Of a stretch of DNA of 64,000 nt, positions 14,117-60,793 are shown piece after piece. How positions within the stretch are numbered: position 1 is the first letter of the stretch; every line of letters begins with the position of its first letter. The stretch lies in assembly GCA_947168855.1 (NCBI GenBank), contig CAMVNO010000003.1, positions 24,574-88,573 on the forward strand. The letters run 5' to 3'. The notes beneath the pieces are model-generated. The model saw only the letters and a list, made by a program, of their open reading frames with translations. It did not search any database and was not told the DNA's origin. The DNA comes from an uncultured Clostridia bacterium (GTDB taxonomy: Bacteria; Bacillota; Clostridia; Christensenellales; CAG-138). Position numbers and translations under genes: made by a program.

Positions 14117-15055
14117 TTATTTGAGATTTTTATACCAGAAGCTAACGCTGCTCTCTGTGAAAAACCCCGCGGCGGCGTAGAATTCTTTTCTCCATCCGAA
14201 GGAATCCACATAGCACCTTTCAATACCGTGTTTTTTGCACCGCATAACCGCGCCATGAAGCATAGCAGTACCAATTCCTTTGCGACGATACTTTTCTCTC
14301 GTACTTACCGGTTCTATCAAGGCCGACTTTGTTCTTTTGTCAACATAAACAAAGCAGTATGCACAGACATCGTTCCCTTCTGCAGCGTTTTCGTCCACAA
14401 CGACACACTCAAAGCTGTCTCGGAACAGGGATGAATTCTTTCTTGCACGATATGGATTCATACCGGCTTTATAGTCAAGCGATTCCCAATCGGGATGAAA
14501 GCCCAGACGGAGCGCACTCCATTTATTCTCCTCATTTGGATAGGCTTCTCCAAAGAAGAACCGAAAGCCACTCGGTAGATCAATCGTCACATCTGCGTTC
14601 AATGGGCATATACAGTTTATGTATTCTTTTTCCGAATACTCCCTGTAGCCCGAATCATTCAGCGTTTTGCGCATATAAGCGAAACTGTCACTTACCGCGA
14701 CCCAAAACTTGATCGTCCCTTCGTCCGCCTCTGCAAACAGAGGCCGGCAATTCTCTTCGCTGAACGCGATCATGGATGGGAAGATATGCTCATAGCCGCC
14801 TTTGACACTCACATAAATGTTTTCGCCGTCAGGAAGGATGCAGGCAGCGATTTCTTCATTGTCTTCCCAGAGAAAAATGTAATCCGAAGACCTTTTTCTA
14901 TCCTCGTCTCTCTCCTGCGCGTTGACTCTGTAGATAAGGTCATGCAATCTTTCCGGCAGCCATGAATCCGCAGTATGATTCTCATAATATTGACTTCGCA
15001 AAAATGCTTCCAGGCGATCCAGGTCCTGATCCATTTGAAAATGTATTATTTTCAT
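14117..15055 (-). CDS. GNAT-family N-acetyltransferase
   Basis: C-terminal acetyl-CoA motif (REKYRRKGIGTAML). ATG at 15055 is preferred over the upstream start. AT-richer than the backbone. Confidence 0.75.
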   Translation of the reverse strand: MKIIHFQMDQDLDRLEAFLRSQYYENHTADSWLPERLHDLIYRVNAQERDEDRKRSSDYIFLWEDNEEIAACILPDGENIYVSVKGGYEHIFPSMIAFSEENCRPLFAEADEGTIKFWVAVSDSFAYMRKTLNDSGYREYSEKEYINCICPLNADVTIDLPSGFRFFFGEAYPNEENKWSALRLGFHPDWESLDYKAGMNPYRARKNSSLFRDSFECVVVDENAAEGNDVCAYCFVYVDKRTKSALIEPVSTREKYRRKGIGTAMLHGAVMRCKKHGIERCYVDSFGWRKEFYAAAGFFTESSVSFWYKNLK

Positions 15056-15134
15056 TGTTCGCCTTCTTTCACGCTTTACAAGCCCCAATTCCTCGCGTTA
15101 AGTATACCATGCGCTGGCAGTTATAACAACAAAA

Positions 15135-15171
15135 AACCTCTCTTGTCTTGGCAGACAAAAGAGGTTTTTTT
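15135..15171. terminator. Bidirectional hairpin with flanking A/T runs, immediately before a tRNA-end 12-mer
   Basis: aacctctcttgtc/ttggca/gacaaaagaggtt is flanked by aaaaa and ttttttt and followed by the 12-mer tggttgcggggg (15174-15185). The arrangement resembles that at 60688-60729. Confidence 0.6.
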
Positions 15172-15418
15172 CATGGTTGCGGGGGAGATTTTCATTGAGT
15201 ACGCACATGAAAAGTTCCCGTTCCTGCTTGGTAGAAAGTGTACTTTTGACATATATGGCGCCTATTTATCAGTGATTTGAAGATGATCCCGTTCTTTGAC
15301 AAACAACCCGATTTCTCTTGTAAATACGCATCTGCTGAATACATGCTGCGGGGGTCATTGAACCACGCAGAAACGGGGATAAAAACGATACTGAATCAAT
15401 CGTTACAAAAAAGAATAC

Positions 15419-15512
15419 TTGACTTCGCCGTACGGCTAAATTATAATGAAATTGATCAAAATAAGCCGTACGGCTAAATTGTGCCGAAGTATTTTCAAAT
15501 GAGCCGTTCGGC
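15419..15512 (+). promoter_or_regulatory. hipBA promoter with three operator-like palindromes
   Basis: TTGACT at 15419-15424, a 17-nt spacer and TATAAT at 15442-15447. GCCGTACGGC occurs at 15427-15436 (inside the spacer) and 15465-15474. A GCCGTTCGGC variant at 15503-15512 abuts the RBS. Confidence 0.6.
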
Positions 15513-15524
15513 GAAGGAGTGCAT

Positions 15525-15734
15525 ATGATCGTAACAGATGCCAAATCATTCGGAGAAGCTATCCGCAAAAGACGGAAGCAGCTGGGCTATACGCAGGCTT
15601 ATCTTTCCGAGTTTACCGGGATGAGCGTCAGCTTTCTGTCCGATTTGGAAAACGGAAAGCCAACGATAGAACTGGAGAAAGCGATCCGTATCGCAAACCA
15701 GTTGGGCCTGGATTGCTCTGTGACGGAGAGGTAA
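15525..15734 (+). CDS. hipB: XRE-family HTH antitoxin (HipB-like)
   Basis: About 70 aa. The HTH (LGYTQAYLSEFTGMSVSFLSDLENGK) is present, aaggag lies 5 nt upstream of ATG 15525, and hipA follows 3 nt downstream. Confidence 0.85.
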   Translation: MIVTDAKSFGEAIRKRRKQLGYTQAYLSEFTGMSVSFLSDLENGKPTIELEKAIRIANQLGLDCSVTER

Positions 15735-15737
15735 CAA

Positions 15738-17009
15738 ATGGAATTTACGGTCTGTATCGATATTAAGGGGAAACCGGTTGCTGTCGGATCGATTTCGGGA
15801 GAGAGCAGTGCGGACGCGCGGTTCACATACGCAGCCGATTATCTGAATGCATCCGAAGCGGTTGCGATCTCCTTCAGCCTGCCGCTTCGATCGGAGCCGT
15901 TCTCAGCGGAGCAAACCAAATGCTTTTTTGACGGATTATTGCCGGAAGGTTTCACGCGCCGCGCGGTCGCATCGAATCTGCACCTGGATGAAAATGATTA
16001 TGTGCAGATCCTGTATCAGCTCGGCCGTGAATGCATCGGCGCGCTGCGCGTGTATCGAAAGGGAGAAAAGCCGCAGGCGTTTTATGATAAGCTGACGCGC
16101 GAACAGGTCCGTGAATTGGCGCGTGAAGGGGCGACCGAATCTGCAGCGGTCGTGATCGAATCCAGGCTGTCGCTTGCCGGTGCGACCGGGAAAGTCGGTT
16201 TATACCGGGATCCGAAGACGGGGGAGTGGTACCTGCCCCGCGGAACGGCGCCGAGCACCCATATCGTGAAGCAAAGCCATGTTCGGCTGGAACGGATCGT
16301 TCCGAATGAACTGCTATGCTTGCTGACGGCGAAGCAATGCGGGATCGACGTTCCGGAAACGACGATCATCGATCTCGGATCCGGAAAGGATGAGGACATC
16401 CTGCTTGCGTCCGAACGGTTTGATCGCCGCTTTTCGGAACAATCTGCATTCGCGAATGAATTGCCAATGCCGCTGCGTTTGCATCAGGAGGATTTCGCAC
16501 AGGCGTTGGGCATCCCGGCGTCACGGAAATACGAAAACGGGGACCGGCATCTTGCAAAGATGTTCGCGCTGCTGCGCACGCATTCTTCCCAGCCGATCGA
16601 GGACCAGCTGAAGCTATGGGACAGGATCGTATTCAATTGTCTGATCGGGAACACCGACGGTCATCTGAAGAACTATTCTTTGCTGTACAGCGAGGATCTG
16701 AAGACGGTCCGACTTGCCCCGGCATATGACGTGATCAATACGATCGGCTACAAAGGTATGACGCATGAAATGTCATTTATGATCGGCAACGCAAAACGGA
16801 TCGAAGACGTAACGCGCGATTCCTTCCGCACGGCAGCCAGGGAAGCCGGACTTGGTGAACGGATGGCGCTGAACCGACTGGACGTGATGGCCAAACGCTT
16901 CCGCCCGGCGCTGGAATCTGCGGCTGAGACGCTGATACATCAGGGTGTCAAAGGAGTAGATGCGCTGAAAGCAATCATACTGGATCGCAACCCAAACACG
17001 TTGCAATAA
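15738..17009 (+). CDS. hipA: Type II toxin HipA-family serine/threonine kinase
   Basis: 423 aa with a HipA N-terminal coupling domain and the catalytic loop GNTDGHLKNYS. Confidence 0.9.
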   Translation: MEFTVCIDIKGKPVAVGSISGESSADARFTYAADYLNASEAVAISFSLPLRSEPFSAEQTKCFFDGLLPEGFTRRAVASNLHLDENDYVQILYQLGRECIGALRVYRKGEKPQAFYDKLTREQVRELAREGATESAAVVIESRLSLAGATGKVGLYRDPKTGEWYLPRGTAPSTHIVKQSHVRLERIVPNELLCLLTAKQCGIDVPETTIIDLGSGKDEDILLASERFDRRFSEQSAFANELPMPLRLHQEDFAQALGIPASRKYENGDRHLAKMFALLRTHSSQPIEDQLKLWDRIVFNCLIGNTDGHLKNYSLLYSEDLKTVRLAPAYDVINTIGYKGMTHEMSFMIGNAKRIEDVTRDSFRTAAREAGLGERMALNRLDVMAKRFRPALESAAETLIHQGVKGVDALKAIILDRNPNTLQ

Positions 17010-17221
17010 ATACACTCCCTTCATCTTACCTTGCAATAATGCGAAGCACGATGACCGCATCGTGCTTTTTTATTGCTCATATTTGATCAAAAACATGGCA
17101 AAAACGGTATAAATCGATAATAAATTAGCAGTGACAATTTTTTCTGCGAACACACATTCGCACATTTGTATGTTACAAATCACAGTGATATTCTTATTCC
17201 AAACAGAAAGGAGAAGAGCAT

Positions 17222-17437
17222 ATGAGTAAAATCATTAGGAACATGATACGGTGCAATACTTGCGGGGACACTATTGAAAGCACATCGCGCCACGATTTCA
17301 AATACTGCAAATGTGGTCGTGTGTTTGTCGATGGCGGCCATGACTATCTTTGCAGAGGATATACTGTTTCTCCAGTGGATTTCACCGAGTTATCTGTGGA
17401 AGCAGAAGACGATTCGTCTGAAGATAGTTCAAAATGA
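17222..17437 (+). CDS. Small zinc-ribbon protein, function unknown
   Basis: 71 aa with CNTCG...CKCG Cys pairs and an acidic tail. Good RBS (aaaggagaag). AT-rich. Confidence 0.55.
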   Translation: MSKIIRNMIRCNTCGDTIESTSRHDFKYCKCGRVFVDGGHDYLCRGYTVSPVDFTELSVEAEDDSSEDSSK

Positions 17438-17455
17438 TTCACATCCCAAATCAAC

Positions 17456-17484
17456 TTGAATAATGCACGTTTTTACGTTATAAT
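17456..17484 (+). promoter_or_regulatory. Candidate promoter of the helicase-NUDIX operon
   Basis: TTGAAT at 17456-17461, a 17-nt spacer and TATAAT at 17479-17484, about 30 nt upstream of ATG 17517. Confidence 0.45.
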
Positions 17485-17516
17485 TGCATTAATCAATTCA
17501 GATGGTGGAGAGACAC

Positions 17517-20500
17517 ATGCTTCCAACCGGTTTATACGAACAGATTATCAGTAAAGCATTGGATCGAGAGCTTGCCATATCGGACAAGCGCAGCCAGACT
17601 GCGCCGATCGATGACGCTGAAGCGGCTAAAATCCTGGCGAAATATGTAGCAGAAATCGTCGAACGCGGGCTTGAGAACGTGAAGGATAACGGCGGTGGTC
17701 TGAACTCCCAGGTGGAGCTTGTGAATCGCATTGTATCTACTATCGTCAATGAGACAAGGGAAGAAGCATTCGAAGGGATGTCCGTTGCGGAACGTGCTGA
17801 GCAGCTGCTGGCATTGCTTGATACAAAGAATACGATCCATGCAGTCGATGCGCGCGCGGAGATCGTCCGTCCGGAAACATCGATCGCGCAGAGCTCGCTC
17901 TTTACCGGCGCGGTGCATGAACCGCAGATGTATACGGAGCTGAAAAAAGAGATCGTTTCCTGCGACCGTATCGATATGATCGTGTCGTTCATCAAATGGA
18001 GCGGCCTACGGCTGATCATCAACGAACTGACCGAATTCACACAAAACGGTGGGGAACTGCGCATCATCACGACCTCGTATATGGGCGCAACGGATGTCAA
18101 GGCAATCGAAGAACTGCGCAAGCTTCCGAATACTCGGATCAAGGTCAGCTATAACACCAACATCACGCGCCTGCACGCAAAGGCATATATCTTTTATCGC
18201 GACACCGGCTTTACAACGGCGTATGTCGGTTCGTCCAATATTTCCAATGCTGCGCTGACCAGCGGCTTGGAATGGAATACGAAAATTACGAAAAAGGATC
18301 TTCCGGAAACGATCGATAAGGTTGCTGCGACCTTTGAGTTTTACTGGAATGATAAAGAATTTGAATACTACGACGAAGGGCAGTGCGAGCGTCTTGCCCG
18401 TGCACTGAAAGCGGAACGATACCACGACACCAATAATCCGGCATTGTACACGGTGGATGTGCAGCCGTATTCGTATCAACAGGAGATTCTTGATCGACTG
18501 GATGCGGAGCGCACGGTGCGAGGGTATTATCGCAACCTGGTCGTAGCAGCTACCGGAACAGGGAAAACGATCATTTCCGCATTAGACTATAAGCGCTTCT
18601 GCAAACGGAATCCGGACAAGCCATGCAGGCTGCTGTTCGTTGCCCATCGTGAGGAGATCCTGCAGCAGAGCATAGCCGCATTTCGTGCTGTGTTGAAGGA
18701 TGCGAACTTCGGTGCGCTGTTTGTCGGCAATTATCGGCCGGAGAGCATCGACCATCTGTTCATGTCGATCCAGACATTCAATTCGCAATCCTTCACGGAA
18801 AAGACGACGGCAGATTTGTATGACTATATCATCGTGGACGAGTTCCACCATGCTGCCGCGCCGACCTATCAAAAGCTGCTGTCATATTATCAGCCAAAGA
18901 TCCTGCTCGGATTGACAGCGACCCCGGAACGCATGGACGGCAGAAGCATTTTGCCGTACTTCAATAACCGTATTGCAGCGGAGATCCGCTTGCCGGAAGC
19001 GATCGACCGGAAGCTCTTGTGCCCGTTCCAATACTTCGGCGTGACGGATACAATCGATCTGGATTCGCTGAAATGGGCGAGGGGCGGATATGACCGGGCA
19101 GAGCTGTCGAACATTTACACGTTCAGCGGATACGAGGCAAGACGCCGCGCGGATCATGTGATTTCATCTTTGCTGAAATATGTAACAGATATCGATGACG
19201 TCAAGGGACTGGGCTTCTGTGTCACAATCGAACACGCCGGGTTTATGGCGGAGTATTTCAATGCACACGGCATCCCGTCGATCTGCCTGACCGGCGAATC
19301 CTCCGACGAGGAACGTAAAACGGCGAAGAGACGGCTTGTGTCCGGAGAGATCCGATTCATCTTCGTAGTCGATATTTACAACGAAGGTGTCGACATTCCG
19401 GAGGTCAACACGGTTCTGTTCCTGCGACCGACCGAATCGCTGACGATCTTTTTACAGCAGCTTGGACGCGGTCTGCGCCTTGCTGAAAACAAAGATTGCC
19501 TGACCGTTCTTGACTTCATCGGACAGGCGAACCGAAAGTACAATTTCGAGGACAAGTTCGCTGCGCTGCTTTCCAATACAACGCGCGGTGTGTCGCGTGA
19601 GATCAAGGAAGGCTTCACTTCTCTGCCGAAGGGCTGTTATGTGCAGCTCGAAAAGAAAGCGGAAAGCTATATCCTGGACAATATCCGCGCTTCCTACGGT
19701 AGCAGCGCGGGTCTCGTATCGCGCATCGAGGGCTTTGAAAAGGATACCGGACGCGAGCTGACGCTTGCAAACTTCCTGGAGTATTACCATCTCGATCCGC
19801 GTGCTATTTACAAATATGCGACGTTTTCACGTCTTTGTGCGCGTGCAGGCGTGATGGATGATTTCATTGAGCCGTTGGAAGAAACACTGACAAAAGCATT
19901 TTCGCGCCTTGCGGTCATCGACTCCCGCCGTTGGATCAGGTTTCTTTTGGATTTGCTCCCGCGTTTGGACGATGTGGATTTCGCCGCCTTGCCCGATTTG
20001 GAAAAGCGGATGTTGCAGATGTTTTATGTCACGGTGTGGAGCAAAACCGCGGATGACTGGAACAGCGACGAGGTGCTGGACAATCTGTATGCGCTTGCCG
20101 ACAGCCCGGTGCTGCTCGGCGAGCTTTGCACATTGTTGCAGTACCGCTACGATCATATCGACTTCATCGACGAACCGGTCGATCTCGGGTTCGAATGCCC
20201 GCTCGATCTGCATTGCACCTATACGCGCGATCAGCTGCTCGTAGCGCTCGATTTCATGAAGCCCGCGACCGTGCGCGAAGGCGTCAAGTGGCTGCCGGAT
20301 AAGAAGCTGGATGTGTTCTTTGTCACGCTGAATAAAGCGGATAAGGATTATTCGCCTACGACGATGTACAACGATTATTCCATCAACAGTGAGCTGTTCC
20401 ACTGGCAGAGTCAAAGCACCACGGCCGCAGAGTCGCCGACGGGGCAGCGGTATATTCATCATCAGGAGCGCGGCAGCCGCGTACTGCTGTTCGTCCGTGA

Positions 20501-20666
20501 ATTCAAGACGGATCGCCTTTCCGGCGGTGCAGAGGCATACACATTCCTTGGAACAGCCAATTATGTGAAGCATGAAGGTTCCCGTCCGATGAACATTACC
20601 TGGAGCCTCGACGCGCCGATCCCGGCGAAATACCTGAAGAAGACGAATAAGCTGGTGGTCGGTTGA
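17517..20666 (+). CDS. PLD-like nuclease / SF2 DEAD-DEAH helicase / DUF3427-type C-terminal domain protein
   Basis: HKD motif (LHAKAYIF...GSSNIS), Walker A (ATGTGKT), VDEFHH, LTATPER and QQLGRGLR. The last ~350 aa resemble DUF3427 by recollection. ATG 17517 follows ggagag. Confidence 0.85.
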   Translation: MLPTGLYEQIISKALDRELAISDKRSQTAPIDDAEAAKILAKYVAEIVERGLENVKDNGGGLNSQVELVNRIVSTIVNETREEAFEGMSVAERAEQLLALLDTKNTIHAVDARAEIVRPETSIAQSSLFTGAVHEPQMYTELKKEIVSCDRIDMIVSFIKWSGLRLIINELTEFTQNGGELRIITTSYMGATDVKAIEELRKLPNTRIKVSYNTNITRLHAKAYIFYRDTGFTTAYVGSSNISNAALTSGLEWNTKITKKDLPETIDKVAATFEFYWNDKEFEYYDEGQCERLARALKAERYHDTNNPALYTVDVQPYSYQQEILDRLDAERTVRGYYRNLVVAATGTGKTIISALDYKRFCKRNPDKPCRLLFVAHREEILQQSIAAFRAVLKDANFGALFVGNYRPESIDHLFMSIQTFNSQSFTEKTTADLYDYIIVDEFHHAAAPTYQKLLSYYQPKILLGLTATPERMDGRSILPYFNNRIAAEIRLPEAIDRKLLCPFQYFGVTDTIDLDSLKWARGGYDRAELSNIYTFSGYEARRRADHVISSLLKYVTDIDDVKGLGFCVTIEHAGFMAEYFNAHGIPSICLTGESSDEERKTAKRRLVSGEIRFIFVVDIYNEGVDIPEVNTVLFLRPTESLTIFLQQLGRGLRLAENKDCLTVLDFIGQANRKYNFEDKFAALLSNTTRGVSREIKEGFTSLPKGCYVQLEKKAESYILDNIRASYGSSAGLVSRIEGFEKDTGRELTLANFLEYYHLDPRAIYKYATFSRLCARAGVMDDFIEPLEETLTKAFSRLAVIDSRRWIRFLLDLLPRLDDVDFAALPDLEKRMLQMFYVTVWSKTADDWNSDEVLDNLYALADSPVLLGELCTLLQYRYDHIDFIDEPVDLGFECPLDLHCTYTRDQLLVALDFMKPATVREGVKWLPDKKLDVFFVTLNKADKDYSPTTMYNDYSINSELFHWQSQSTTAAESPTGQRYIHHQERGSRVLLFVREFKTDRLSGGAEAYTFLGTANYVKHEGSRPMNITWSLDAPIPAKYLKKTNKLVVG

Positions 20667-20667
20667 T

Positions 20668-21093
20668 ATGAAAACAATTAGAGTTGTCGCAGCCATCATC
20701 CATAAAGACGGAAAGATCTTTGCAACGCAGCGCGGATACGGCGCGTACAAGGATTATTGGGAATTCCCCGGCGGAAAGATCGAAGCAGGGGAGACGCCGG
20801 AACAGGCACTGGTTCGCGAAATCCAGGAAGAGCTTGCAACAACGATCCGAATCGAACGGTTCCTGACGACGGTGGAGTATGATTATCCGGAATTCCATCT
20901 GTCCATGGATTGCTTTATCTGCACCATCGTACAAGGTAAATTGGACCTTCTGGAGCACGAATCCGCTCGCTGGCTTTCGAAGGAACATTTGCACGATGTA
21001 AACTGGTTGCCCGCAGATTTATTGGCTGTTGATAAACTTGGGAAAGGATCTTGGGCAGATCAGGGTATGTGCTGTAAGAAAAGCAGATTCTAA
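20668..21093 (+). CDS. NUDIX hydrolase (MutT / (d)NTP pyrophosphohydrolase-like)
   Basis: Perfect Nudix box GGKIEAGETPEQALVREIQEEL. Starts 1 nt after the helicase stop. Confidence 0.9.
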   Translation: MKTIRVVAAIIHKDGKIFATQRGYGAYKDYWEFPGGKIEAGETPEQALVREIQEELATTIRIERFLTTVEYDYPEFHLSMDCFICTIVQGKLDLLEHESARWLSKEHLHDVNWLPADLLAVDKLGKGSWADQGMCCKKSRF

Positions 21094-21136
21094 TATCGAA
21101 CAAGCATCTGCAAATCTATTCGCGAATACTATACTG

Positions 21137-21595
21137 CTAAAAGGCCCAGCCTTCAGCGGCACATAAACCATTAATGTTTACTGTACAAATCCCATATGAC
21201 CTGCATATATAGGGGATTTTATTCTGTTTATCTTGGTTCTCTTCGGTGATGATTGTCAGATGATACTTCATCGCTGTAGCTATTAAAAACGCATCACCAG
21301 AGGAGGAACCCTTACCTCCAGAGGAAAAATCTATCATCTTAGGGTGTTCGGTTACTATTTTTCTAACATTTCGTTGCACATCGTTGTCAATCGGGATAAT
21401 GACACATTGCTTTGTTTTTAGCCATGTTCCGACATAACTATCATTTTCCACTTCTTCTTCGATCTCTGAACAAGTAACAATCAATTGCTCAGTTATATAT
21501 TTCTCAACTGATGCCCACAAGCTTCTATGTGTTTGACGTGGGAAAGAATCAGATGGTTTCTGCGCAAAAATTGATGATGAATCAATTTGTACCAT
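21137..21595 (-). CDS. DUF4411-like PIN-fold protein (putative orphan toxin/nuclease)
   Basis: 152 aa. GDAFLIATAMKY...TIITEE and the C-terminal IPYICRSYGI resemble DUF4411 by recollection. No partner gene remains upstream; the IS starts 28 nt away. Confidence 0.5.
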   Translation of the reverse strand: MVQIDSSSIFAQKPSDSFPRQTHRSLWASVEKYITEQLIVTCSEIEEEVENDSYVGTWLKTKQCVIIPIDNDVQRNVRKIVTEHPKMIDFSSGGKGSSSGDAFLIATAMKYHLTIITEENQDKQNKIPYICRSYGICTVNINGLCAAEGWAF

Positions 21596-52556: not shown

Positions 52557-53482
52557 GTACAAAACAGGAAAAAGAAACCATCGTTGTAATCCGCATTGAT
52601 CAGATTCAGCCGTTTCCGAATCACCCGTTTCAGGTGAACGAAGACGAAGCGATGGAACGACTGAAAGAAAGCATCGCAGAGAACGGCGTGCTCATGCCTG
52701 CGATTGTACGGCAAATGTCGGACGGATCGTTCCAGATGGTCTCCGGACACCGGCGCATGGCGGCGTGCAAAGCGCTCGGGATTGAAAAGATGCCTGCGAT
52801 CGTGCGGGATATGGACGACGATCTTGCTACCGTCACTATGGTGGACGCAAACAGCCAGCGGGAACAGATCCTCCCAAGCGAAAAGGCGTATGCGTATAAG
52901 ATGCGGCATGACGCATTGAAGCACATGCGCGCTGCGGGCACCGTTCCGGCAAACGGGCGCACGACGGAACAGGTCGGCAGGGAGAACAGCAAGAGCTTTA
53001 TGACGATTACCCGCTATATTCGAATGACGCGGCTGTTGCCCGATCTGCTGAAACTGGTGGACAGCAAGAAGCTGAAGGAAACGGCGGCGGAGCGGATTTC
53101 ATACCTCTCTGAATCGGAACAGCAGATTGTGCTGTCCATCATGCAGTCGGAATTGTGCGTACCGAACAAGGCACAGGCGAAACGCTTGAAGCAGATGCAC
53201 GACGACAGGGAACTGACGGAGGACGCAGTGAGAACTCTGCTCACGGACAGCAAGGGAAAAGCGGAGAAAGTGTCCATCCCAACGGAAACGCTCGAACGGT
53301 TCTTTACCGAAGACGAGACGCCGGCGCAGATGACGGAAACGATCGTTGCGACGATGGAGCAATGGGAAAAGCTGAAGGCGTACTTTCAAAAGGATGTTTC
53401 CCCGGCGCGCATGACGGAAATGATCGTGAAAATGCTCGAGAACGAAAAACGCCGTCAGCGCAGCAAAGCACAGGAGCGATAA
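52553..53482 (+). CDS. ParB-like N-terminal domain protein
   Basis: GVLMPAIVRQ...MVSGHRRMAACKALG...ILPSEKAYAY. Paralogous to 31890-32780. Confidence 0.85.
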   Translation: MSTKQEKETIVVIRIDQIQPFPNHPFQVNEDEAMERLKESIAENGVLMPAIVRQMSDGSFQMVSGHRRMAACKALGIEKMPAIVRDMDDDLATVTMVDANSQREQILPSEKAYAYKMRHDALKHMRAAGTVPANGRTTEQVGRENSKSFMTITRYIRMTRLLPDLLKLVDSKKLKETAAERISYLSESEQQIVLSIMQSELCVPNKAQAKRLKQMHDDRELTEDAVRTLLTDSKGKAEKVSIPTETLERFFTEDETPAQMTETIVATMEQWEKLKAYFQKDVSPARMTEMIVKMLENEKRRQRSKAQER

Positions 53483-53716
53483 TCGACCGCAGGGCAGAGC
53501 GGCAATCCTGAAAGGCGGACATGTGCTTGGGCGACCGTGTAACACCGTGTTACACGATGGAATTCCCTAAGGCAGCACAAGGTTTACGGTGCGGGGAGGC
53601 AACTCCCCGCGCCGATCCCGGACACGGAAATGATAGCATTCTTTCCGAAAATGATAGCTTTTTTGAGGTTGAAACCGGGACGGCAGATTTGATCCCGTTA
53701 GGGATTAACAAGCATG

Positions 53717-53757
53717 GGATTGTGGTAGCACAATCCGTCCGTAAGGGAGCGCCCTTA
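53717..53757 (+). promoter_or_regulatory. Candidate oriT (inverted repeat plus nic-like sequence)
   Basis: Inverted repeat ggattgtg/gtag/cacaatcc (53717-53736), followed 4 nt later by GTAAGGGAGCGCCCTTA. This resembles the MOBQ nic region TAAGTGCGCCCT of RSF1010 as I recall it. A further perfect palindrome cgtgtaacac-c-gtgttacacg lies at 53536-53556. Confidence 0.4.
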
Positions 53758-53787
53758 AACCCCTGCAAGAGAAAACGGAGGTAAAAA

Positions 53788-54141
53788 ATGTTGAAACGAA
53801 GCATTCAAATCAACTTCCGCGTCGATGCGGAAGAACAGGAACTCATAAAGACAAAAGCGAAAAGATGCGGACTGTCCATTGCGAAGTATCTGCGGTTTCT
53901 GATTCACGACTGCATTCCGAAGGAACAGCCGCTGGCGGATTACAAAGTGCTGATCCGCGAGCTGCACGCGATTGGGAACAGCATGAATCAGATTGCGGCA
54001 AGAGCGAACGCAACGGGGTATATCGCATCGAAAGAATACGCGGAGAACGCAGAAAAGCTGAACGAGGCAATCCTGAACATACAGGAAGCAGTTACAGGAC
54101 CGGAGGTAATGCATGGCGACGACGAAGATATGGCCGGTTAA
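53788..54141 (+). CDS. mobC: MobC-family relaxosome accessory protein
   Basis: IQINFRVDAEEQELIKTKAKRCGLSIAKYLRFL is an RHH pattern. Overlaps the relaxase start. Confidence 0.85.
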   Translation: MLKRSIQINFRVDAEEQELIKTKAKRCGLSIAKYLRFLIHDCIPKEQPLADYKVLIRELHAIGNSMNQIAARANATGYIASKEYAENAEKLNEAILNIQEAVTGPEVMHGDDEDMAG

Positions 54142-55486
54142 GACACGCCTTGATCATGTGCTCCGGTATGCGGAGGACGAAGGGAAAACAGAGAATGCGG
54201 ATTGGAGCAAGATCGGTGATCCGTCTTTGCGCGACGTCATGGACTATGCCATGGATGATGCGAAAACGCAACAACAGTATTACGTTTCCGGTTGGAATTG
54301 TTTGCCGGGAATAGCATTGAAAGAGATGCGATTAGTCAAACGCATGTTTGGCAAGGAGGACGGCATTCTTGCGTTTCACGGCTATCAGAGTTTCAAACCG
54401 GGTGAGGTATCGCCGGAGATCGCGCATGAGATCGGGATGAAACTGGCGGAAGAGCTGTGGCCCGATCACCAAGTAATCATTGCGACACACGTGAATAAGG
54501 ACCATGTTCATAACCATTTCGTCTTGAATTCCGTTGGTCTCCATGGCAAAAAGTTCAATGCGTGCAAAGCAAGTTACCGTGAAATGCGCGCTGCATCCGA
54601 TCGCCTTTGCAGGGAATACGGACTGTCGGTCATCGAACCGAAGAGCACCAGCACGACGAAGCACTACACGGAGTGGGCAGCGGAACACGCCGGGGAACCG
54701 ACCTACCGTTCGATTATTCGGCAGGACATCGATACCGCAGTTAAGTACAGCATGACCGTTCAGGAGTTCTTCAAAGCCATGAAAAAGAAGGGATATGTCT
54801 TTGAGCAGCGCGGCAGCTTCCTGCGCATCAAGGCAAGCGGTTCAAAGCGGTTTATGCGCCTTCGGTCATTGGGACCGGGATACTCGGAAGAATCCATAAA
54901 ACAGAGAATCCTGCGGCACCGATACCCGGAGATCGAACCGCGAGAACCGAAGAAGCCGAAGAAGTACGTTCGCGTACAGGGTGATTTCCGCTTGTCTAAG
55001 GTCACATGGAAAGGTCTGCGAGCTCTGTATTTTTTCTATGTGCGGAAACTTCGGGAAGCGAAAAGTCATCCGAAACAGCGTTACCCGTTCGTGCTGAAAG
55101 AGGACTTGCGGCATCTTGACGCGCTCTCGGAACAGTCCAAATTTCTATTCCGGTACAAGCTCGACACCGGCGAGCAAGTACAGGCATTACAGAAAACGCT
55201 CTCCGAGAAGCTTTCCGATTTGCAATCCGAGCGTAAGGAACTGAATAACGAACGCCGCAGAACCGGCACAACGGAGGAGCGCAAAACCGAGATCGAGGAT
55301 CGGCTGAAAGCACTTTCCGAAACCGGGAAGCAGCTTCGCCGGGACTTGAAACTGTGTACGGACGTGCTGTTGCGATCCATAGAGATTAAGGAAAAGAGAC
55401 GCACCATGCAGCAAGAACGATTGGCACAGAAACCTACCGAGAAAGGAAAGAGCCGAAATGCGCGGAGACGGGACTATGAACGGTGA
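54113..55486 (+). CDS. Relaxase/mobilisation nuclease domain protein
   Basis: 457 aa. HVNKDHVHNHFVLNSV histidine motif. N-terminus MATTKIWPVK parallels 30551-31849. Confidence 0.88.
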   Translation: MATTKIWPVKTRLDHVLRYAEDEGKTENADWSKIGDPSLRDVMDYAMDDAKTQQQYYVSGWNCLPGIALKEMRLVKRMFGKEDGILAFHGYQSFKPGEVSPEIAHEIGMKLAEELWPDHQVIIATHVNKDHVHNHFVLNSVGLHGKKFNACKASYREMRAASDRLCREYGLSVIEPKSTSTTKHYTEWAAEHAGEPTYRSIIRQDIDTAVKYSMTVQEFFKAMKKKGYVFEQRGSFLRIKASGSKRFMRLRSLGPGYSEESIKQRILRHRYPEIEPREPKKPKKYVRVQGDFRLSKVTWKGLRALYFFYVRKLREAKSHPKQRYPFVLKEDLRHLDALSEQSKFLFRYKLDTGEQVQALQKTLSEKLSDLQSERKELNNERRRTGTTEERKTEIEDRLKALSETGKQLRRDLKLCTDVLLRSIEIKEKRRTMQQERLAQKPTEKGKSRNARRRDYER

Positions 55487-55648
55487 TACAATCGAAATCT
55501 TCTTCACGGTCGAGCCGATCGTGGATGCCGTTTTGAATGCAACGGATTTATCTCCGCCGATTATAAAATTATCTCACGTTTTCGGTTGCAAAAACGCGCG
55601 GGATGAACTATTCGTTAAAGTGACTAAAAATAGAAAGGAGAAACGACC

Positions 55649-55999
55649 ATGAACATTATGTACAGACAAGAGGGCGATTACCTGCTTCCGAACCTGACGC
55701 TCGATCCGCAGCCGGAGGGCGAGATCGGCTTCTGGGGCTGGCGGCGGAAGCAGTTTCTCAAGGAACGCCGCAAGGGCACCTACAACGCTATGCTGATGAA
55801 AGGCACGCTGACGCAGCATTTGATCGACACGAACGAAGCCGCGCTCGACATGATGGAAACGCTTGTCAAGCAGATGGCGGCAGCCGATGACGTGACGGAG
55901 GATCTGAAACGCCGCGATCAGATGGCATGGGTGGGAGCCATGAACAATATCCGAAACCGTGCCGACGAGATTGTCCGCGCCGAGTTGATCGAGGTATAG
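55649..55999 (+). CDS. tnpV: TnpV-like transposon-encoded protein
   Basis: 116 aa. YRQEGDYLLPNL...GFWGWRRKQFLKE...LMKGTLTQHL matches the TnpV pattern. Confidence 0.75.
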   Translation: MNIMYRQEGDYLLPNLTLDPQPEGEIGFWGWRRKQFLKERRKGTYNAMLMKGTLTQHLIDTNEAALDMMETLVKQMAAADDVTEDLKRRDQMAWVGAMNNIRNRADEIVRAELIEV

Positions 56000-56000
56000 T

Positions 56001-57191
56001 ATGGCACGGGCAAAGAAACGCGAGGACAAGCGGTACGAAAAGAAGATCACTGTCGGACGGAACTTTGACGGCTCCCTGAACCGGATCAGCGTCTATGCCG
56101 CAACGCAAAAGGAACTGGAAAGCAAGGTTGCGGAGATCAAGGTACAGATCGAGCAGGGCATTTATCTGAGCTCGGATACGGCACTGTTCGGAAAAATCGC
56201 CGAGAACTGGATCGAGCATTTCAAACCGACGATCAGCGAAAAGATGCGTCTGCGGTATAAAGGCATCATCAAGGGAAAGCTGCAGCCGCTTGCCGAAATG
56301 CGGGTGCGCGATCTGCGACCGATGCATCTGCAGGTCATCATCAACGAAATGGCAAAGGACGGTTACGCGCAGAAATCCATGCAGATGGTGAAGCAGACGG
56401 CGTCGCAGATTCTCGATCTCGCCATGCAAAACGACCTCGTTTATCGGAACGTGTTTGAGAAGATTAAGGTCCCGCACGTTGACGCGGAGGAGCGGCAGCC
56501 GATCACCGAGGAGCAGCGGGAACTGATCCTGAACACATGGGAGGGGCATCGCATGGGCGTACCGGCGCTGATCATGCTGTACTGCGGGCTGCGGCGCGGA
56601 GAACTGCTCGCCCTGCTGTGGACCGACATCGACTTCAAGGCAAAAACGCTTTCGGTCAGCAAGGCGGCGGATATGCCGACGAACGCAACCACGGTGAAGA
56701 AACCGAAGACAAAGGCGGGCACGCGCATTGTTCCGATCCCGGACGCGATCATGCCGGCGCTGCTCAGGGCGAGGAGAGAAGCAATCTCAATGTATGTATG
56801 CCCGGCGATGCACACGGGGGACATCATGAGCGCGCAAGCGTACACGGAGGCGTGGAGCAGCTATATGCACTATCTGAACCTTTGTGCCGGCGGTCGGGAC
56901 AAGGTGCGGACAAAGAACGAAAACGGAAAGGTCTGCTTCATCCCTGCGGTGCAGGCGATGGAACCGTTTACCGCGCATCAATTGCGTCACTCCTACGCGA
57001 CCATGCTCTACGACGCAGACGTGGACGTCAAGACGGCGCAAAAGCTGCTCGGGCACGCGGATTTCTCCGTCACGATGAAGATCTACACGCACTTGTCCAC
57101 GGAAAAGGAAAGCGCGGGCATCGAGAAACTGAATCAGCACGTCACGGAGCATCTCGGCAACAGAATCGAAGTTCTTGCGAATGAGAGATAA
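56001..57191 (+). CDS. int: Tyrosine-type site-specific integrase
   Basis: 396 aa. R (GLRRGELLAL), HQLRHSYAT and LGHADFSVTMKIYTH catalytic blocks. Confidence 0.92.
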   Translation: MARAKKREDKRYEKKITVGRNFDGSLNRISVYAATQKELESKVAEIKVQIEQGIYLSSDTALFGKIAENWIEHFKPTISEKMRLRYKGIIKGKLQPLAEMRVRDLRPMHLQVIINEMAKDGYAQKSMQMVKQTASQILDLAMQNDLVYRNVFEKIKVPHVDAEERQPITEEQRELILNTWEGHRMGVPALIMLYCGLRRGELLALLWTDIDFKAKTLSVSKAADMPTNATTVKKPKTKAGTRIVPIPDAIMPALLRARREAISMYVCPAMHTGDIMSAQAYTEAWSSYMHYLNLCAGGRDKVRTKNENGKVCFIPAVQAMEPFTAHQLRHSYATMLYDADVDVKTAQKLLGHADFSVTMKIYTHLSTEKESAGIEKLNQHVTEHLGNRIEVLANER

Positions 57192-57220
57192 TGCAGCAAT
57201 CGAACAGAACGGCAGCGCAT

Positions 57221-57250
57221 CGGGGAACCGATGCGCCGCTTTTTTCGGAA
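57221..57250 (+). terminator. Rho-independent terminator after int
   Basis: ggcagcgcatcgg / ggaa / ccgatgcgccgc, followed by tttttt. Confidence 0.75.
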
Positions 57251-57647: not shown

Positions 57648-59615
57648 ATGTCCGAACGTTATACTCGCTTATTTACACTTCCGGAGGAAAACCTATATGC
57701 TATCGGTTCTCCTATTATCATTTGTGCCGGAGCATTATTAAAAGACACTTTATCTGGAAACATTATCGCGCAGTTGAAGTTTCGCAACATCGGAAACAAA
57801 ACAGTCTCTGCTTTGAAGGTTTCTATACGAACGTTTGATATTTTTGGAAAAGAATTAGAAGGTATAACAGAGTATCAGTATCTAGATTTAGCGGTTTTGA
57901 GGAATCAAGAATTTGGTCAGAAAACCGCTGTGGTTCTGCCAAACCCGGATACTCGTTCTTTTTGCTGTGATTGTCGTAGTGTAGTATTTGCTGATGGCTC
58001 TGTTTGGGAAGCAAAAGAAGCGAATTGGTCACCTCTGAAAAAGCAAGAATCATTACAATCTCGTTTTGGCGATCTGATAAGTCAATATCAACGTGATATA
58101 GGAGATCCGGAAGCAAGATTTGTTGCAATCAATGACCGCGATCTTTGGTTTTGCACGTGTGGAGCAATCAACAATAGTGAGGAAAAAATCTGTCATAGTT
58201 GCAAGGCAAAAATTGAGAAATTAAAAGAGGCAGAAGATACGACGCTCTTAAAAGAGCATTTACAGGAGTATCTACAGAAGGAAGAACAGGCTCGTCTTGA
58301 AGCTGAACGCAAAGCAGAAATCGTACGTGTAGAAAAAGCACGCAAAGCGGAAGAAGAACGGATCGTAGCAGAACAACAAAAGAAGAAAAATATAAAGAGA
58401 GTAATTACGGCATTCGCTATTATTGCGCTGATTGCAGTAATAATCATAGTGTATACTACTATTATTCACCCAATCATTGATTATAATAATGCTAAAGAGT
58501 TATATGAAAAAGGACAGTATGAAGAAGCGATAGCGGCGTTTGAAACAATGAACGGTTATCGGGATAGCGCAGAGCAGATAGAAAAATGTGAAGATGCTAT
58601 CAAAGATGTTAGATATTCCGAAGCAATTGATCTTTATAATGCTGGTAATTATGGAGATGCGATTGTGGTTTTCTCTTCTCTAATAGACTATAAAGATAGT
58701 CGGGCATATGTAGAAGCATGTGAATTGACGATGAAGAATCAAGAATATGAAAATGCGGTCTTGTTGCTCGAATCAGAGCAGTATGAGGATGCCATCATAG
58801 CATTTCAAGCTTTGAAAGACTTTAATGATAGCAAAGATCGTATTATTGATTGTAAGTATCACATTGCTATTAAATTATATGAGAATGGAGAGTATGAAGA
58901 AGCAATTGCAGCTTTCACTGCATTGAATGGGTATAAAGATAGTAGTTCAAAAATAAAGGAAATAACGCCACTGTACAAAAAGGCTTTGCTTGCAAGTGCT
59001 AAGATTGGATCAATTGTTCTTTTTGGGAAATACGAGCAAGACAACAATATGTCTAATGGAAAAGAGAACATTGAATGGCAAGTTCTTGCTAAAGAAGGCG
59101 ACAAAATTCTTCTGCTGAGCAATTATGCACTTGACAGCCAACCATATCATACAACGAATACGAATGTGACTTGGAAAACAAGTTCGCTGCGTAAATGGCT
59201 TAACGAAACATTCTTCAATAATGCGTTTGATACAGATGAAATGAAAATGATTCTTACTACTTCTAACTGTACAACTACTGATACTCGTTCAAATAAATCT
59301 ACAGATGAGATTACAAATGATAGAGTTTTTCTTTTAAGTGTTGAAGAAGCAAAAAAGTACTCTAGTATTATAACATACGATAACACGTATAGCTTTAAGA
59401 AGAAAGGAACTGACTACTGCTTTGCACAAGGTGCAAAGCGAGATGGCAGAGGAAGTACAATTTGTAGGTATTGGTGGTTAAGAGACATCGGGTGTTCTAG
59501 CGCCGGCATTTATGGCGGTAGTTATATTGATGTCTACAAAATTGCGACCTATGAGATTCGTGTGGAGTATAGTGATGTCGCGGTCTGTCCTGCAATTTGG
59601 ATTGATGTTGGGTAA
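57648..59615 (+). CDS. Membrane-anchored repeat protein (N-terminal domain with zinc ribbon, coiled coil, TM, TPR-like repeats, C-terminal DUF6273-like domain)
   Basis: 655 aa. CTCG...CHSC ribbon, K/E-rich coiled coil and a TM helix (VITAFAIIALIAVIIIVYTTII). At least four copies of a ~38-aa motif (G.YEEAI.AF..L.GYKDS). The tail has WWLR and CPAIWI. Confidence 0.7.
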   Translation: MSERYTRLFTLPEENLYAIGSPIIICAGALLKDTLSGNIIAQLKFRNIGNKTVSALKVSIRTFDIFGKELEGITEYQYLDLAVLRNQEFGQKTAVVLPNPDTRSFCCDCRSVVFADGSVWEAKEANWSPLKKQESLQSRFGDLISQYQRDIGDPEARFVAINDRDLWFCTCGAINNSEEKICHSCKAKIEKLKEAEDTTLLKEHLQEYLQKEEQARLEAERKAEIVRVEKARKAEEERIVAEQQKKKNIKRVITAFAIIALIAVIIIVYTTIIHPIIDYNNAKELYEKGQYEEAIAAFETMNGYRDSAEQIEKCEDAIKDVRYSEAIDLYNAGNYGDAIVVFSSLIDYKDSRAYVEACELTMKNQEYENAVLLLESEQYEDAIIAFQALKDFNDSKDRIIDCKYHIAIKLYENGEYEEAIAAFTALNGYKDSSSKIKEITPLYKKALLASAKIGSIVLFGKYEQDNNMSNGKENIEWQVLAKEGDKILLLSNYALDSQPYHTTNTNVTWKTSSLRKWLNETFFNNAFDTDEMKMILTTSNCTTTDTRSNKSTDEITNDRVFLLSVEEAKKYSSIITYDNTYSFKKKGTDYCFAQGAKRDGRGSTICRYWWLRDIGCSSAGIYGGSYIDVYKIATYEIRVEYSDVAVCPAIWIDVG

Positions 59616-59631
59616 AGAATAATGGAGTTGA

Positions 59632-60402
59632 ATGATAATTATGATAGACAAAGCATATTCTGACCTTGAAATAGAGGAGCTTGAGGCAAATCAACAAAAC
59701 CTGTGGGAAGAATGCGAACAAGAACCGAAACTATTATTTAAGTACAAATCAATTGCATTAGCAAAAGATTTTGCTCGGATTTATGATTGCATAAAGCTGA
59801 ATTATCTTTACTTCCCTACAGTGGAAAAACTGAATGATTCTCTAGAAGGAATCGGAACAAAAATACTTTTAGAAAACACAGAACAGTTTGAAAGTGAAAA
59901 GAAAAATGAATACCATGTATTAGCGCTTTCTGAAAATTGCTTTTCTCCGGTCATGTGGGCTCATTATAGCTCGAATAGAAGTGGAGTCTGTCTTGGCTTT
60001 TTCAAAGGGAATCCTCTTGATAGTACTAATGATAGTGCATTTAGAGATGCTAGGCGCGTATACTATGTTGATAAACGATCAGCATTTTCATCTGACGAAG
60101 AAATGGCCGTAGAACGCGACTTATTCTACAAGAATAGTGATTGGTCGTATGAGAAAGAATGGAGAATAGTGAAGAAAACAGATGAAAATGAGTTTAGATA
60201 TAACGAAAGTGATTTAGCATGTGCTATCTTTGGAGAAAAAGCAGACCGTGTATTAAAAGAATGTATTAGAACAATAAATCCGAAACTTTGTTTTTATGAA
60301 GTGCATTACGATGCGCAGCACTATTGCCTATATCTTTCAAACAATACAGCTAAACTCTATACTATTCAAGAATTATATGATGATATTGTAAGTAAAACGT
60401 AA
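59632..60402 (+). CDS. DUF2971-family protein
   Basis: LLFKYKS..., LNDSLEG, VMWAHYSSNRSGVCLGF and YEKEWRIV motifs. Confidence 0.65.
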   Translation: MIIMIDKAYSDLEIEELEANQQNLWEECEQEPKLLFKYKSIALAKDFARIYDCIKLNYLYFPTVEKLNDSLEGIGTKILLENTEQFESEKKNEYHVLALSENCFSPVMWAHYSSNRSGVCLGFFKGNPLDSTNDSAFRDARRVYYVDKRSAFSSDEEMAVERDLFYKNSDWSYEKEWRIVKKTDENEFRYNESDLACAIFGEKADRVLKECIRTINPKLCFYEVHYDAQHYCLYLSNNTAKLYTIQELYDDIVSKT

Positions 60403-60622
60403 GCGAGAACCTGTATTATCCTTCATCTCGTAGAGGGATTTTTTGAGTTATCTACCGGACATTACCAACATTCATAAAGAACATCAAGGTCAATCTGTTT
60501 TTATAAAGGATAGGCAAAACTGCTTCAAATTCGGCGGGGATCGGAACTCGATCTGCCGCCTTTTTTTATGCATAAAACATCGAAACCGATGGGCGATGAA
60601 CAGCACCTCCAAAAAGTCTGTG

Positions 60623-60655
60623 TCGTCAAAGTGTCGTCAAAGTGTCGTCAAAACC
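60623..60655. repeat. Three tandem copies of GTGTCGTCAAA
   Basis: Read directly: gtgtcgtcaaagtgtcgtcaaagtgtcgtcaaa, about 65 nt from the tRNA 3' end inside the island. Confidence 0.85.
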
Positions 60656-60717
60656 CAAAAATCGACGGCTTGCGAAAGAGCCAAAAAGGGAAAATGCCCT
60701 AAATTAGGGCACTTTTT

Positions 60718-60793
60718 TGGTTGCGGGGGCAGGACTTGAACCTGCGGCCTCCGGGTTATGAGCCCGACGAGCTACCGACTGCTCCACCCCGCG
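60718..60793 (-). tRNA. Initiator tRNA-Met (anticodon CAT), CCA encoded
   Basis: The reverse complement reads CGCGGGGTGGAGCAGTCGGTAGCTCGTCGGGCTCATAACCCGGAGGCCGCAGGTTCAAGTCCTGCCCCCGCAACCA. It has a C1-A72 mismatch and three G-C pairs closing the anticodon stem, both initiator hallmarks. Confidence 0.9.

Follow-up and report, generated by a model that had tools for sequence, protein, structure and literature searches.

Two unrelated integrative mobilizable elements, probably stacked in tandem on an initiator tRNA gene of an uncultured Clostridia bacterium

The window analyzed here is a stretch of 64,000 nucleotides (nt) from an uncultured Clostridia bacterium (Christensenellales; CAG-138), corresponding to positions 24,574 to 88,573 of contig CAMVNO010000003.1 (assembly GCA_947168855.1). 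It contains one tRNA gene, a tRNA-Met(CAT) on the minus strand at 60718-60793, which was called by both ARAGORN and Rfam in agreement with an earlier note made from the sequence alone; Rfam gave no match in the window other than this tRNA. A C1:A72 mismatch and a GGG/CCC anticodon stem, closed by three G-C pairs, mark it as an initiator (tRNA-fMet), and the plus strand reads its 3′ end first. Partial copies of this 3′ end delimit two stretches, here termed elements A and B, each of which carries its own recombinase gene. To the right of the tRNA, backbone sequence resumes as had been noted, with a MerR/TipAS gene at 60892. The main features of the locus are as follows.

13974-14116, plus strand: first 47 codons of a truncated aldo/keto reductase gene, where the backbone ends (sequence; comparison with contig L031)
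14117-15173, minus strand: low-GC (45%) segment with a GNAT acetyltransferase gene (Pfam, GC content)
15174-15185, minus strand: 12-nt copy of the tRNA 3′ end (tRNA positions 65-76), distal junction of A
15186-34437, plus strand: element A, 19.3 kb, a predicted integrative mobilizable element (IME) encoding a large serine recombinase (LSR) (Pfam; collinear relative in L006)
15186-15280, plus strand: left-end segment of A, which would encode the recombinase C-terminal tail EIFIEYAHEKFPFLLGRK... after circularization
33015-34508, plus strand: LSR gene (Pfam Resolvase, Recombinase, and Zn_ribbon_recom)
34438-34483, minus strand: displaced copy of the tRNA 3′ part, 45 nt with one inserted nt in the region of the anticodon loop
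34484-60717, plus strand: element B, a predicted 26.2-kb IME with a tyrosine integrase (Pfam; absent in L001 and L009-L011)
60718-60793, minus strand: intact initiator tRNA-Met gene, regenerated by the insertions (ARAGORN, Rfam)

Sequence comparison confirmed that the first 40 plus-strand nt of the tRNA recur exactly at 34438-34477 and that 5 further nt agree past a 1-nt insertion, as the earlier note had described. The terminal 12 nt of the tRNA, TGGTTGCGGGGG, are present in the same orientation at 15174, 34438, and 60718. Shuffled sequences yielded an expectation of 0.01 occurrences (previously put at 0.008), and three or more copies were found in 0 of 100 shuffles; the claim that the 12-mer at 15174-15185 exceeds chance thus held. 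In the tRNA sense, a stable hairpin followed by a U-run stands after each of the three copies (z-scores of −6.5, −5.1, and −3.0), that is, not only after those at 15174 and 60718, for which it had been reported, but also after the third. This indicated that the terminator of the tRNA is supplied by whatever adjoins it. The fragment at 34438-34483 serves both as the distal junction of B and as the tRNA-side junction of A, and an exact 45-nt copy, without the extra base, is present in the relatives L006-L008 and L029. The additional base in the window is a T in the anticodon-loop part of the remnant (34476-34478; GGGTTTATGAG versus GGGTTATGAG), and could be either a real mutation immobilizing B or a homopolymer assembly error.

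Loci from other assemblies (designated L001 and so on) revealed which parts of this region vary independently; all related genomes found were metagenome-assembled genomes. In L001, which belongs to the same species (MerR backbone, 99.8% identity), B is absent, and the 3′ end of the recombinase gene abuts an intact tRNA. The same state was seen in three rumen Christensenellales/Clostridia genomes (L009-L011), in which MerR/Coat_F backbone of 80 to 85% identity follows, so that sites holding only one of the segments, which the earlier note had proposed to look for, do exist. The linkage of MerR to tRNA-fMet is conserved in L001, L002, L009, L011, and L035.

For the empty site, a hypothetical junction composed of the terminator flank, the 12-mer, and the tRNA body was written as a pattern and searched in metagenome contigs. 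This predicted junction was present in three of them (L003-L005). Here, an intact tRNA-fMet, identical to that of the window at 76 of 76 positions, is followed by the sequence of the window from 15185 down to 13988 at 99.8% identity, with neither A nor B. An unoccupied tRNA, as anticipated earlier, was therefore found; however, the adjoining reductase gene is truncated there too, and the 5′ side of the tRNA consists not of MerR but of a different backbone, X (e.g., L005 1-12987; GC content, 60.5%). Backbone X encodes a polysaccharide deacetylase, an M48 peptidase, and YARHG proteins, provides its own TTGACA/TATAAT promoter before the tRNA, and in L005 had no match in the window or in any other locus fetched. 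On one reading its linkage is a chimera through the 76-nt tRNA; on the other, two tRNA-fMet loci exist. The empty junction on the 3′ side cannot be a chimera of this kind, since only 12 nt are shared there.

The left end of A was found in many contexts. In the collection, 37 blocks contain the exact HipA protein of the window, part of the cargo of A, and 21 of the contigs were read. In eight HipA look-up contigs (L037-L044), left ends of A were 98.7 to 99.97% identical to the window (at least 99.7% in seven of the eight). Six of these matches have their first position at 15172-15174, and the left flanks differ between contigs. As exceptions, the match of L037 extends about 50 nt into the terminator flank, and L041 has its first nucleotide within the element. 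An 11-kb collinear relative of A in L006 is bounded by the same 12-mer, with a different outer flank and conserved element-side sequence. Altogether, the left end of A joins at least nine different flanks exactly at 15174, and L006 and L034 share the same joint. Near-identical left ends in differing flanks indicated that A is a discrete, recently moved unit, and breakpoints of homology in at least nine contigs placed the 12-mer at a synteny break, as the earlier note required of it.

Near-identical left ends of A were also observed after the variant cores TGGTTCTGGGGG, TGGTTCCGGGGG, and TGGTTGCGGAGG (L038 1110-1192, L043 2778-2860, L044 2250-2305, and L042 4500-4545). Three of these contigs have a common promoter-like 45-nt flank, GTGACAATATGNCCATATAGTGTCGATT, with unrelated genes upstream. 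These ends could represent secondary targets or the ends of recombinase-less elements.

Arrays of both element types recur in different arrangements. The succession of A, the exact 45-nt remnant, and a B-type element with type I restriction cargo was found in L006-L008 and L029. In L034 the order is reversed, with the right end of B, the 12-mer, and an A-type left end following each other; L027 contains an A-A tandem, and in L035 a B-type element with different cargo occupies tRNA-fMet next to MerR. The joints are thus polymorphic, with A only, neither element, and the reverse order all represented. These polymorphic sites prove that the 3′ end of one tRNA-fMet gene was the target of at least two independent integrations and that the tRNA was regenerated each time, which upholds the core of the earlier note. 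We therefore read 15174-60793 as a tandem of two unrelated IMEs that inserted at one tRNA-fMet 3′ end with their own recombinases and nested sub-sites, to which we assign a probability of roughly 85%. On the side of B, a tRNA fragment in the same orientation, an internal tyrosine recombinase, and sporadic presence among relatives are the marks used by Islander; on the side of A, the domain set of an LSR element is accompanied by a shared 12-nt core, an empty attB, and precise joints in at least nine contexts.

Such a tandem could have arisen in two steps. The recombinase of A would act inside the last 12 nt of the tRNA, with the crossover probably in the G-run; the 12-nt mimic carried by A would rebuild the tRNA end, and the displaced 12-mer would stay behind at 15174. 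The tyrosine integrase of B would recombine within the 45 nt, its own 45-nt copy rebuilding the tRNA and the displaced copy remaining at 34438. Each element would bring a terminator hairpin to lie directly after the tRNA.

At the left edge, the observations depart from the earlier account. The reductase gene is indeed cut at 14116, with 47 codons left (about 48 by the previous count), and the conspecific contig L031 (99.1% nt identity) encodes an intact reductase of 382 amino acids (aa) and departs from the window at 14114-14116. However, the same truncation stands beside the unoccupied tRNA-fMet in L003-L005; the proposed erosion of the edge of this array by deletion into the reductase gene was therefore dismissed. 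The segment 14117-15173, with a bidirectional terminator at about 15131-15172 (hairpin z-score, −6.5), is joined straight to the intact tRNA-fMet in L003-L005 at 99.8% identity. It is flank 3′ of the tRNA and belongs to neither A nor B, so that the array begins at 15174 and not, as had been assumed, at 14117, and its left joint is precise and intact. By its low GC content and its provision of the tRNA terminator, the GNAT segment could be what is left of an even older island.

Three other leads on the left side were rejected. A GNAT gene near a metallophosphoesterase gene in a related species (L032) is only 26% identical and no orthologue, which does not support GNAT as a native neighbor; L032 and L033 were too diverged to serve as guides to the ancestral site; and the AKR-Fer4 gene at 23256-24674 is not the missing part of the reductase, being a complete paralogue with its own N terminus.

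Several points weigh against two successive insertions at a single locus or limit how far they can be traced. The order of arrival is not readable from the map, and A may have come later than B, with the displaced remnant as its target. In L003-L005, the two flanks of the window belong to different tRNA-fMet loci, so that a single ancestral locus is not demonstrable. Neither an excision product nor a circular junction was seen for this particular element, and patterns for the joints between remnant and left end of B and between 12-mer and left end of A had 0 matches in viral contigs. Some left ends of A adjoin variant cores (TGGTTCTGGGGG and others) with the common 45-nt flank. The 1-nt insertion in the remnant at 34438 may hinder excision of B here. 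Finally, misjoining at repeats is conceivable, as the window, the exact integrase of which is recorded on a contig of 390,929 nt, apparently stems from a metagenome assembly; despite this concern, the layout of A, 45 nt, and B recurs in independent assemblies.

The strongest competitor is a reversed timing, in which B arrived first and A then entered the displaced 45-nt remnant, with an identical map as the result. The remnant keeps the 12-nt core, its native left flank, and 33 nt of tRNA body, and should be a usable target since the serine recombinase accepts many sequences to the left of the core. In addition, the high identity of the left module of A (at least 99.7% in seven of the eight look-up contigs) suggested a very recent spread, compared with ∼93.5% between the backbone of B and its nearest relatives found, and a B-type element alone at tRNA-fMet next to MerR may exist in L035, the left end of which was out of range. 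On the other hand, four genomes, one of them conspecific, show A abutting tRNA-fMet next to MerR without B, as expected for an A-first intermediate, and in L034 an A-type element entered the regenerated tRNA rather than the remnant. Only the A-only states at the MerR locus lead us to favor arrival of A before B, and we consider the opposite order possible, but the less probable of the two. For the earlier view that older attachment site remnants were pushed leftward, this means that 34438 and 15174 are scars, as stated, but that leftward displacement is not the sole route, since A could have entered the remnant of B.

Alternatively, recombination between two loci, one with X, tRNA, A, and the GNAT flank and the other with MerR, tRNA, B, and the remnant, could have rearranged the chromosome through shared tRNA/att sequence. 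This would accommodate the tie between the left flank of the window and a tRNA-fMet with its own promoter and backbone X in L003-L005, as well as the conserved linkage of MerR to tRNA-fMet elsewhere. The linkage to X crosses a 76-nt repeat, though, and could be an assembly chimera; the reciprocal product was present in no contig, and the recurrence of A-then-B tandems in other genomes makes a rearrangement unneeded. We regard this explanation as unlikely. Far less probable still is a single transfer of the whole 46 kb as one composite element. Transfer of IME-IME composites has been raised as a possibility in a review of IMEs (PMC5704250), and arrays of A, 45 nt, and B do recur in L006-L008; but from array to array the A parts differ in cargo and identity independently of the B parts, the outer joints at 15174 and 60718 form no matched attL/attR pair for either recombinase, and A-only and reverse-order states exist. 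That the 12-mer at 15174, being only 12 nt long, arose by chance and that 15186-34437 is merely variable backbone was ruled out by the empty junction in L003-L005, by the breakpoints of the HipA contigs and others (at least nine independent contigs exactly on the 12-mer), and by the shuffling expectation given above, leaving it a negligible likelihood.

The tandem reading also accounts for the unequal repeats, in that lengths of 12 and 45 nt follow from different recombinase families using nested sub-sites of one tRNA. For B, the identity block of 45 nt extends from the anticodon loop to the CCA end of the tRNA. In tRNA islands, the usual rule puts the crossover in the anticodon loop when the identity block starts there. 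Islander names an anticodon-centered class of such sites (PMC4383910). The predicted attP junction of B comprises window positions 60690-60717, the 45 nt, and positions 34484-34510. For A, the core is the last 12 nt (tRNA positions 65-76), and its predicted attP junction reads GTCTGCGTGGAAATGGTTGCGGGGGAGATTTTCATTGAG. Elsewhere, distal copies of the A core differ at positions 6, 7, and 10 of the core, and never at 11-12; the sequence suggests a crossover within the G-run of the core. A scan of the reconstructed attP and attB of A for dyad symmetry gave only 9 to 10 matches of 22, centered on core offset 8-9. At 34385-34437, the hairpin terminating the minus-strand tRNA lies inside the plus-strand recombinase coding sequence, and this segment would combine coding sequence, terminator, and part of an attP arm, the last role by inference.

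The recombinase gene of A thus extends across its own attachment site. The N terminus of the protein aligns with the catalytic domain of TP901-1 integrase, of which structures have been solved, and the YTRxS motif is kept; matches to solved structures were limited to this domain. The last 71 nt of the gene in the window are antisense to the tRNA remnant, and the protein has 497 aa, compared with 488 aa where the gene abuts an intact tRNA, because the 1-nt insertion in the remnant shifts the frame. We found 15 genome loci in which a recombinase abuts a tRNA(CAT) gene, 3 at tRNA-fMet (94% identity) and 12 at a 77-nt tRNA(CAT) of a sister clade (50 to 60% identity), which presumably resembles the elongator tRNA-Met of Bacillus. 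The overlap between open reading frame (ORF) and tRNA was exactly 44 nt in all 13 readable loci (10 of the 12 at the 77-nt tRNA and 3 of 3 at tRNA-fMet), and the overlapping ORF ends at a TGA formed by the reverse complement of the anticodon loop. L028 contains a 7-kb element with 12-nt direct repeats at its ends. In L022 (4857-5027), two copies of the 12-mer TGGTAGCGGCGA lie at a distance of 159 nt where a recombinase gene ends next to the 77-nt tRNA(CAT), in the interval between the two, and the enclosed 147-nt segment, which ends in a terminator, could be a miniature remnant element.

Targeting of tRNA-Met genes is a property of the whole family: among the 120 best homologue clusters of the A recombinase, at least 88 contain relatives that abut such genes. 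The C termini of these clusters were distributed as follows.

VAGxG[LF]EPxxSGL, 34 of 120 clusters: antisense of tRNA-fMet
GCGG(R/Q)(I/T), 47 of 120 clusters: antisense of tRNA-fMet read one base over (the tRNA of the window translates to GCGGRT*)
VAAI[GR]FE[PR]MTGRV, 7 of 120 clusters: antisense to the other tRNA(CAT)
Long tail directly after the core with an [FL]PxxL[FLG] motif, 14 of 120 clusters: circular or tandem form
Other or partial C terminus, 18 of 120 clusters

When the right end of A was joined to its left end via the 12-mer, the reading frame yielded a 509-aa protein ending in ...VAGEIFIEYAHEKFPFLLGRK..., with the [FL]PxxL[FLG] motif, conserved throughout the family, in its tail, which is the form that a circle of A would produce; the same joining gave related tails in L006, L034, L027, and L028. 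Variable sites in the tail were distributed over the codon positions as 10/3/13 among three close copies, and pN/pS was 0.15/0.73 over 19 codons for the pair of window and L034, as would be expected of a conserved tail motif under purifying selection. The spacing between core and motif differs by subfamily (4 versus 10 to 11 residues), which points to selection on the protein and not on a DNA site. As deduced from these sequences, integration would swap the conserved tail for 13 residues antisense to the tRNA (22 in the window), and the free and integrated forms would encode different C termini. In an AlphaFold2 model of a full-tail homologue (P0160), pLDDT was 81 for the body and below 50 for the tail (residues 489-514); since the tail was unstructured in this model, no structural role could be deduced from it. 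Tentatively, and with less than even odds, the swap may act as a built-in sensor of the integration state that would bias integration versus excision or alter protein stability, partly replacing a separate directionality factor. According to this proposal, full-length protein with the [FL]PxxL[FLG] tail would come only from the excised circle or from an A-A tandem.

The remaining features of A comprise cargo on the left and a conserved backbone on the right.

15519-17009, plus strand: HipB-like HTH gene and HipA toxin kinase gene, cargo (Pfam; called genes in L037-L044)
17502-21595: type IV methyl-directed restriction enzyme (PLD-helicase-DUF3427), NUDIX, and, on the minus strand, DUF4411, cargo (Pfam, PADLOC)
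21732-27401: insert extra to L006, with a high-GC chunk as well as genes for an IS1595 transposase and a truncated SLFN-type helicase
27449-32780: conserved backbone of A (Pfam, ORFs; gene order equal in L006-L008)
27449-28348 and 28345-29331, minus strand: two backbone genes, followed by a 151-aa gene
30280-30549: NikA-like gene
30551-31849: MobA/VirD2 relaxase gene
31836-32780: ParB gene

The restriction enzyme matched mREase_IV of PADLOC with an E value of 2.8e-231. The high-GC chunk (60 to 64% GC) includes a nitroreductase fragment, a complete AKR-Fer4 gene, and MatE. The relative in L006 lacks 21019-27397 (6.4 kb), including DUF4411 and the IS1595 transposase; by its sequence, this insert looks like chromosomal DNA captured via an insertion sequence (IS). 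Within it, 20-nt repeats are present at 22850-22957, and contigs L038 and L039 break inside the IS. An 84-aa ORF (32764-33018), which overlaps the start of the recombinase gene, is conserved in L006-L008 and counts as part of the backbone; its counterparts had no Pfam matches in look-up tables. No second protein with a Resolvase domain was seen among the scanned A genes. Between an A-type left end and a core-like sequence, we observed a fructan/sucrose utilization cluster (LacI, ABC transporter, GH32, and PfkB; L034 12631-21191 and L042 1-4545) with no recombinase in view, which may be a cis-mobilizable element with metabolic cargo.

Element B is likewise divided into cargo and backbone, with a second variable region between integrase and tRNA.

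34874-49638, plus strand: cargo with an AAA_14 ATPase, an SNF2/HKD helicase plus DUF4391, and type III Mod/Res (Pfam, PADLOC)
49914-57245: conserved backbone of B (93.5% nt identity to L034; gene content, ORFs)
49914-50113: tandem repeats, followed by DUF6076 (minus strand) and HTH_17
52553-53482: ParB gene
53788-54141: NikA-like gene
54113-55486: MobA/VirD2 relaxase gene
55649-55999: TnpV-like gene
56001-57191: tyrosine integrase gene (Pfam Phage_integrase, Phage_int_M, and SAM_3)
57648-60402, plus strand: variable slot with TPR/DUF6273 and DUF2971 genes (36 to 37% GC)
60620-60652, plus strand: three perfect tandem copies of the 11-nt GTGTCGTCAAA, 65 to 97 nt from the tRNA

Within the cargo, one defense system is nested in another (42409-49638): a Thoeris pair, ThsA-Macro (44389-45225) and ThsB-TIR (45222-45734), and a PDC-S31/DUF2971 gene (45776-46564) lie between type III Mod (42409) and Res (46579). 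The region preceding this system, 36540-42409, contains the SNF2/HKD helicase (PADLOC candidate C3a139) and DUF4391 as well as two genes without a family match (40419-41276 and 41294-42409), and may be a further defense module. The backbone is ∼93.5% identical also to L035 and L036 over their shorter matches. The repeats at 49914-50113 start where the conserved backbone starts and have a 41-nt period (3.8 copies) with an inner palindromic unit of 21 to 22 nt, TTAGGCAAATATTTGCCTAAA; they may serve as an operator, an oriT, or a replication site. A candidate excision factor is encoded by the TnpV-like gene that precedes the integrase gene. The slot at 57648-60402 is occupied by a gene for a 358-aa protein in L034 (11288-12364) and by a GIY-YIG/NUMOD nuclease gene in L035 (11270-12625), and thus appears to be a second cargo hotspot at the integrase-proximal end. 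L034 and L035 have two or three copies of GTGTCGTCAAA in the corresponding position, and single copies lie close to left ends of B (34619; L006 11603), which makes these repeats candidate arm-type integrase binding sites. Exact-protein look-ups of the B integrase, the AAA_14 ATPase, and the metallophosphoesterase of the window found no record.

A and B are unrelated, and both carry predicted anti-phage cargo. Both are classified as IMEs from an integration module and a relaxase of their own and the lack of a conjugation pore: Pfam matches of the scanned main ORFs of both elements (small ORFs excluded) included no type IV secretion system, VirB4, or coupling protein. With a relaxase and ParB each but no pore, they would be mobilized by other elements.

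The layout of B fits a classical tRNA island fully: an intact tRNA marks one end and a 3′ fragment that starts at the anticodon loop marks the other, and the interior holds a tyrosine integrase, a relaxase, and variable cargo. What sets this tandem apart from classical ones is the partner of B, element A, which relies on a different family of recombinases and on a nested sub-site in that tRNA. The closest precedent for A is provided by the ssrA islands of Dehalococcoides (DsiB/DsiA), LSR-driven mobilizable islands that stand in tandem at the 3′ end of the tmRNA gene and leave a 20-bp direct repeat, and in which the recombinase ORF always overlaps the att site or the RNA gene, with its stop beyond the island (McMurdie et al. 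2011, PMC3146451). The overlapping C termini are divergent, and the authors suggested that DsiB is perhaps fully functional only from the circle (PMC3146451). A likewise is LSR driven, mobilizable, and found in tandem, has a short repeat of an RNA 3′ end, and has an ORF across att. It differs in its target, which is tRNA-fMet (or the 77-nt tRNA(CAT) in the sister clade) instead of tmRNA, and in host phylum. Dehalococcoides islands have a second, small, CcrA-like serine recombinase, DsiA, for which no equivalent was seen among the scanned genes of A, and in the A family the tail across attP contains a conserved motif that appears to be under purifying selection, in contrast to the divergent C termini in Dehalococcoides. 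The recombinase of A is likened to DsiB on the basis of element layout. When the literature was searched for serine integrases whose own gene contains attP, the Dehalococcoides remark was the only one found.

Integrated and free forms that encode different proteins are also produced by other systems. In SSV1-type archaeal integrases, attP lies in an element gene, and the whole tyrosine integrase gene is split by integration; in the integration-dependent immunity of mycobacteriophages, which likewise depends on tyrosine integrases, attP lies in the repressor gene. A is similar in this respect, but exchanges only the last 22 to 34 codons of a serine recombinase. Filamentous phages of the phiRSM type reportedly integrate at the 3′ end of tRNA-Ser with a short core by means of a small serine recombinase, a resolvase-size phage enzyme as opposed to the large serine recombinase of a mobilizable island described here.

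Tandem stacking at tRNA genes is itself ordinary; Islander lists 125 tandem arrays (PMC4383910), and accretion has been described for ICESt1 and for non-autonomous cis-mobilizable elements (CIMEs) (PMC5704250). What is unusual is a tRNA-Met-specific LSR family with the att site in its own gene. Targeting of tRNA genes has hitherto been treated as a property of tyrosine integrases: serine integrases were not known to use tRNA genes (PMC4383910), and IMEs with serine recombinases disrupt dispensable genes (PMC5704250). The TIGER survey assigned 14 of 297 serine-integrase elements to t(m)RNA genes computationally, a use that, according to its authors, had not been reported before and needed proof (Mageeney et al. 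2020, PMC7192596). Compared with those cases, the targeting found here is family-wide (at least 88 of 120 clusters) and comes with empty sites and many independent joints.

The locus and its relatives form a large comparative set, with empty and occupied sites, both orders, and near-identical copies in many flanks. A family specific for the last 12 nt of tRNA-Met would be attractive for genome engineering, since its target is universal and the function of the target is restored on insertion. The conserved tail across attP makes the suggestion of circle-only function, raised for Dehalococcoides, directly testable. In rumen Clostridia, two recombinase families share one tRNA hotspot and have built a 45-kb anti-phage island, with HipBA, Thoeris, and restriction systems of types III and IV among its predicted defense cargo.

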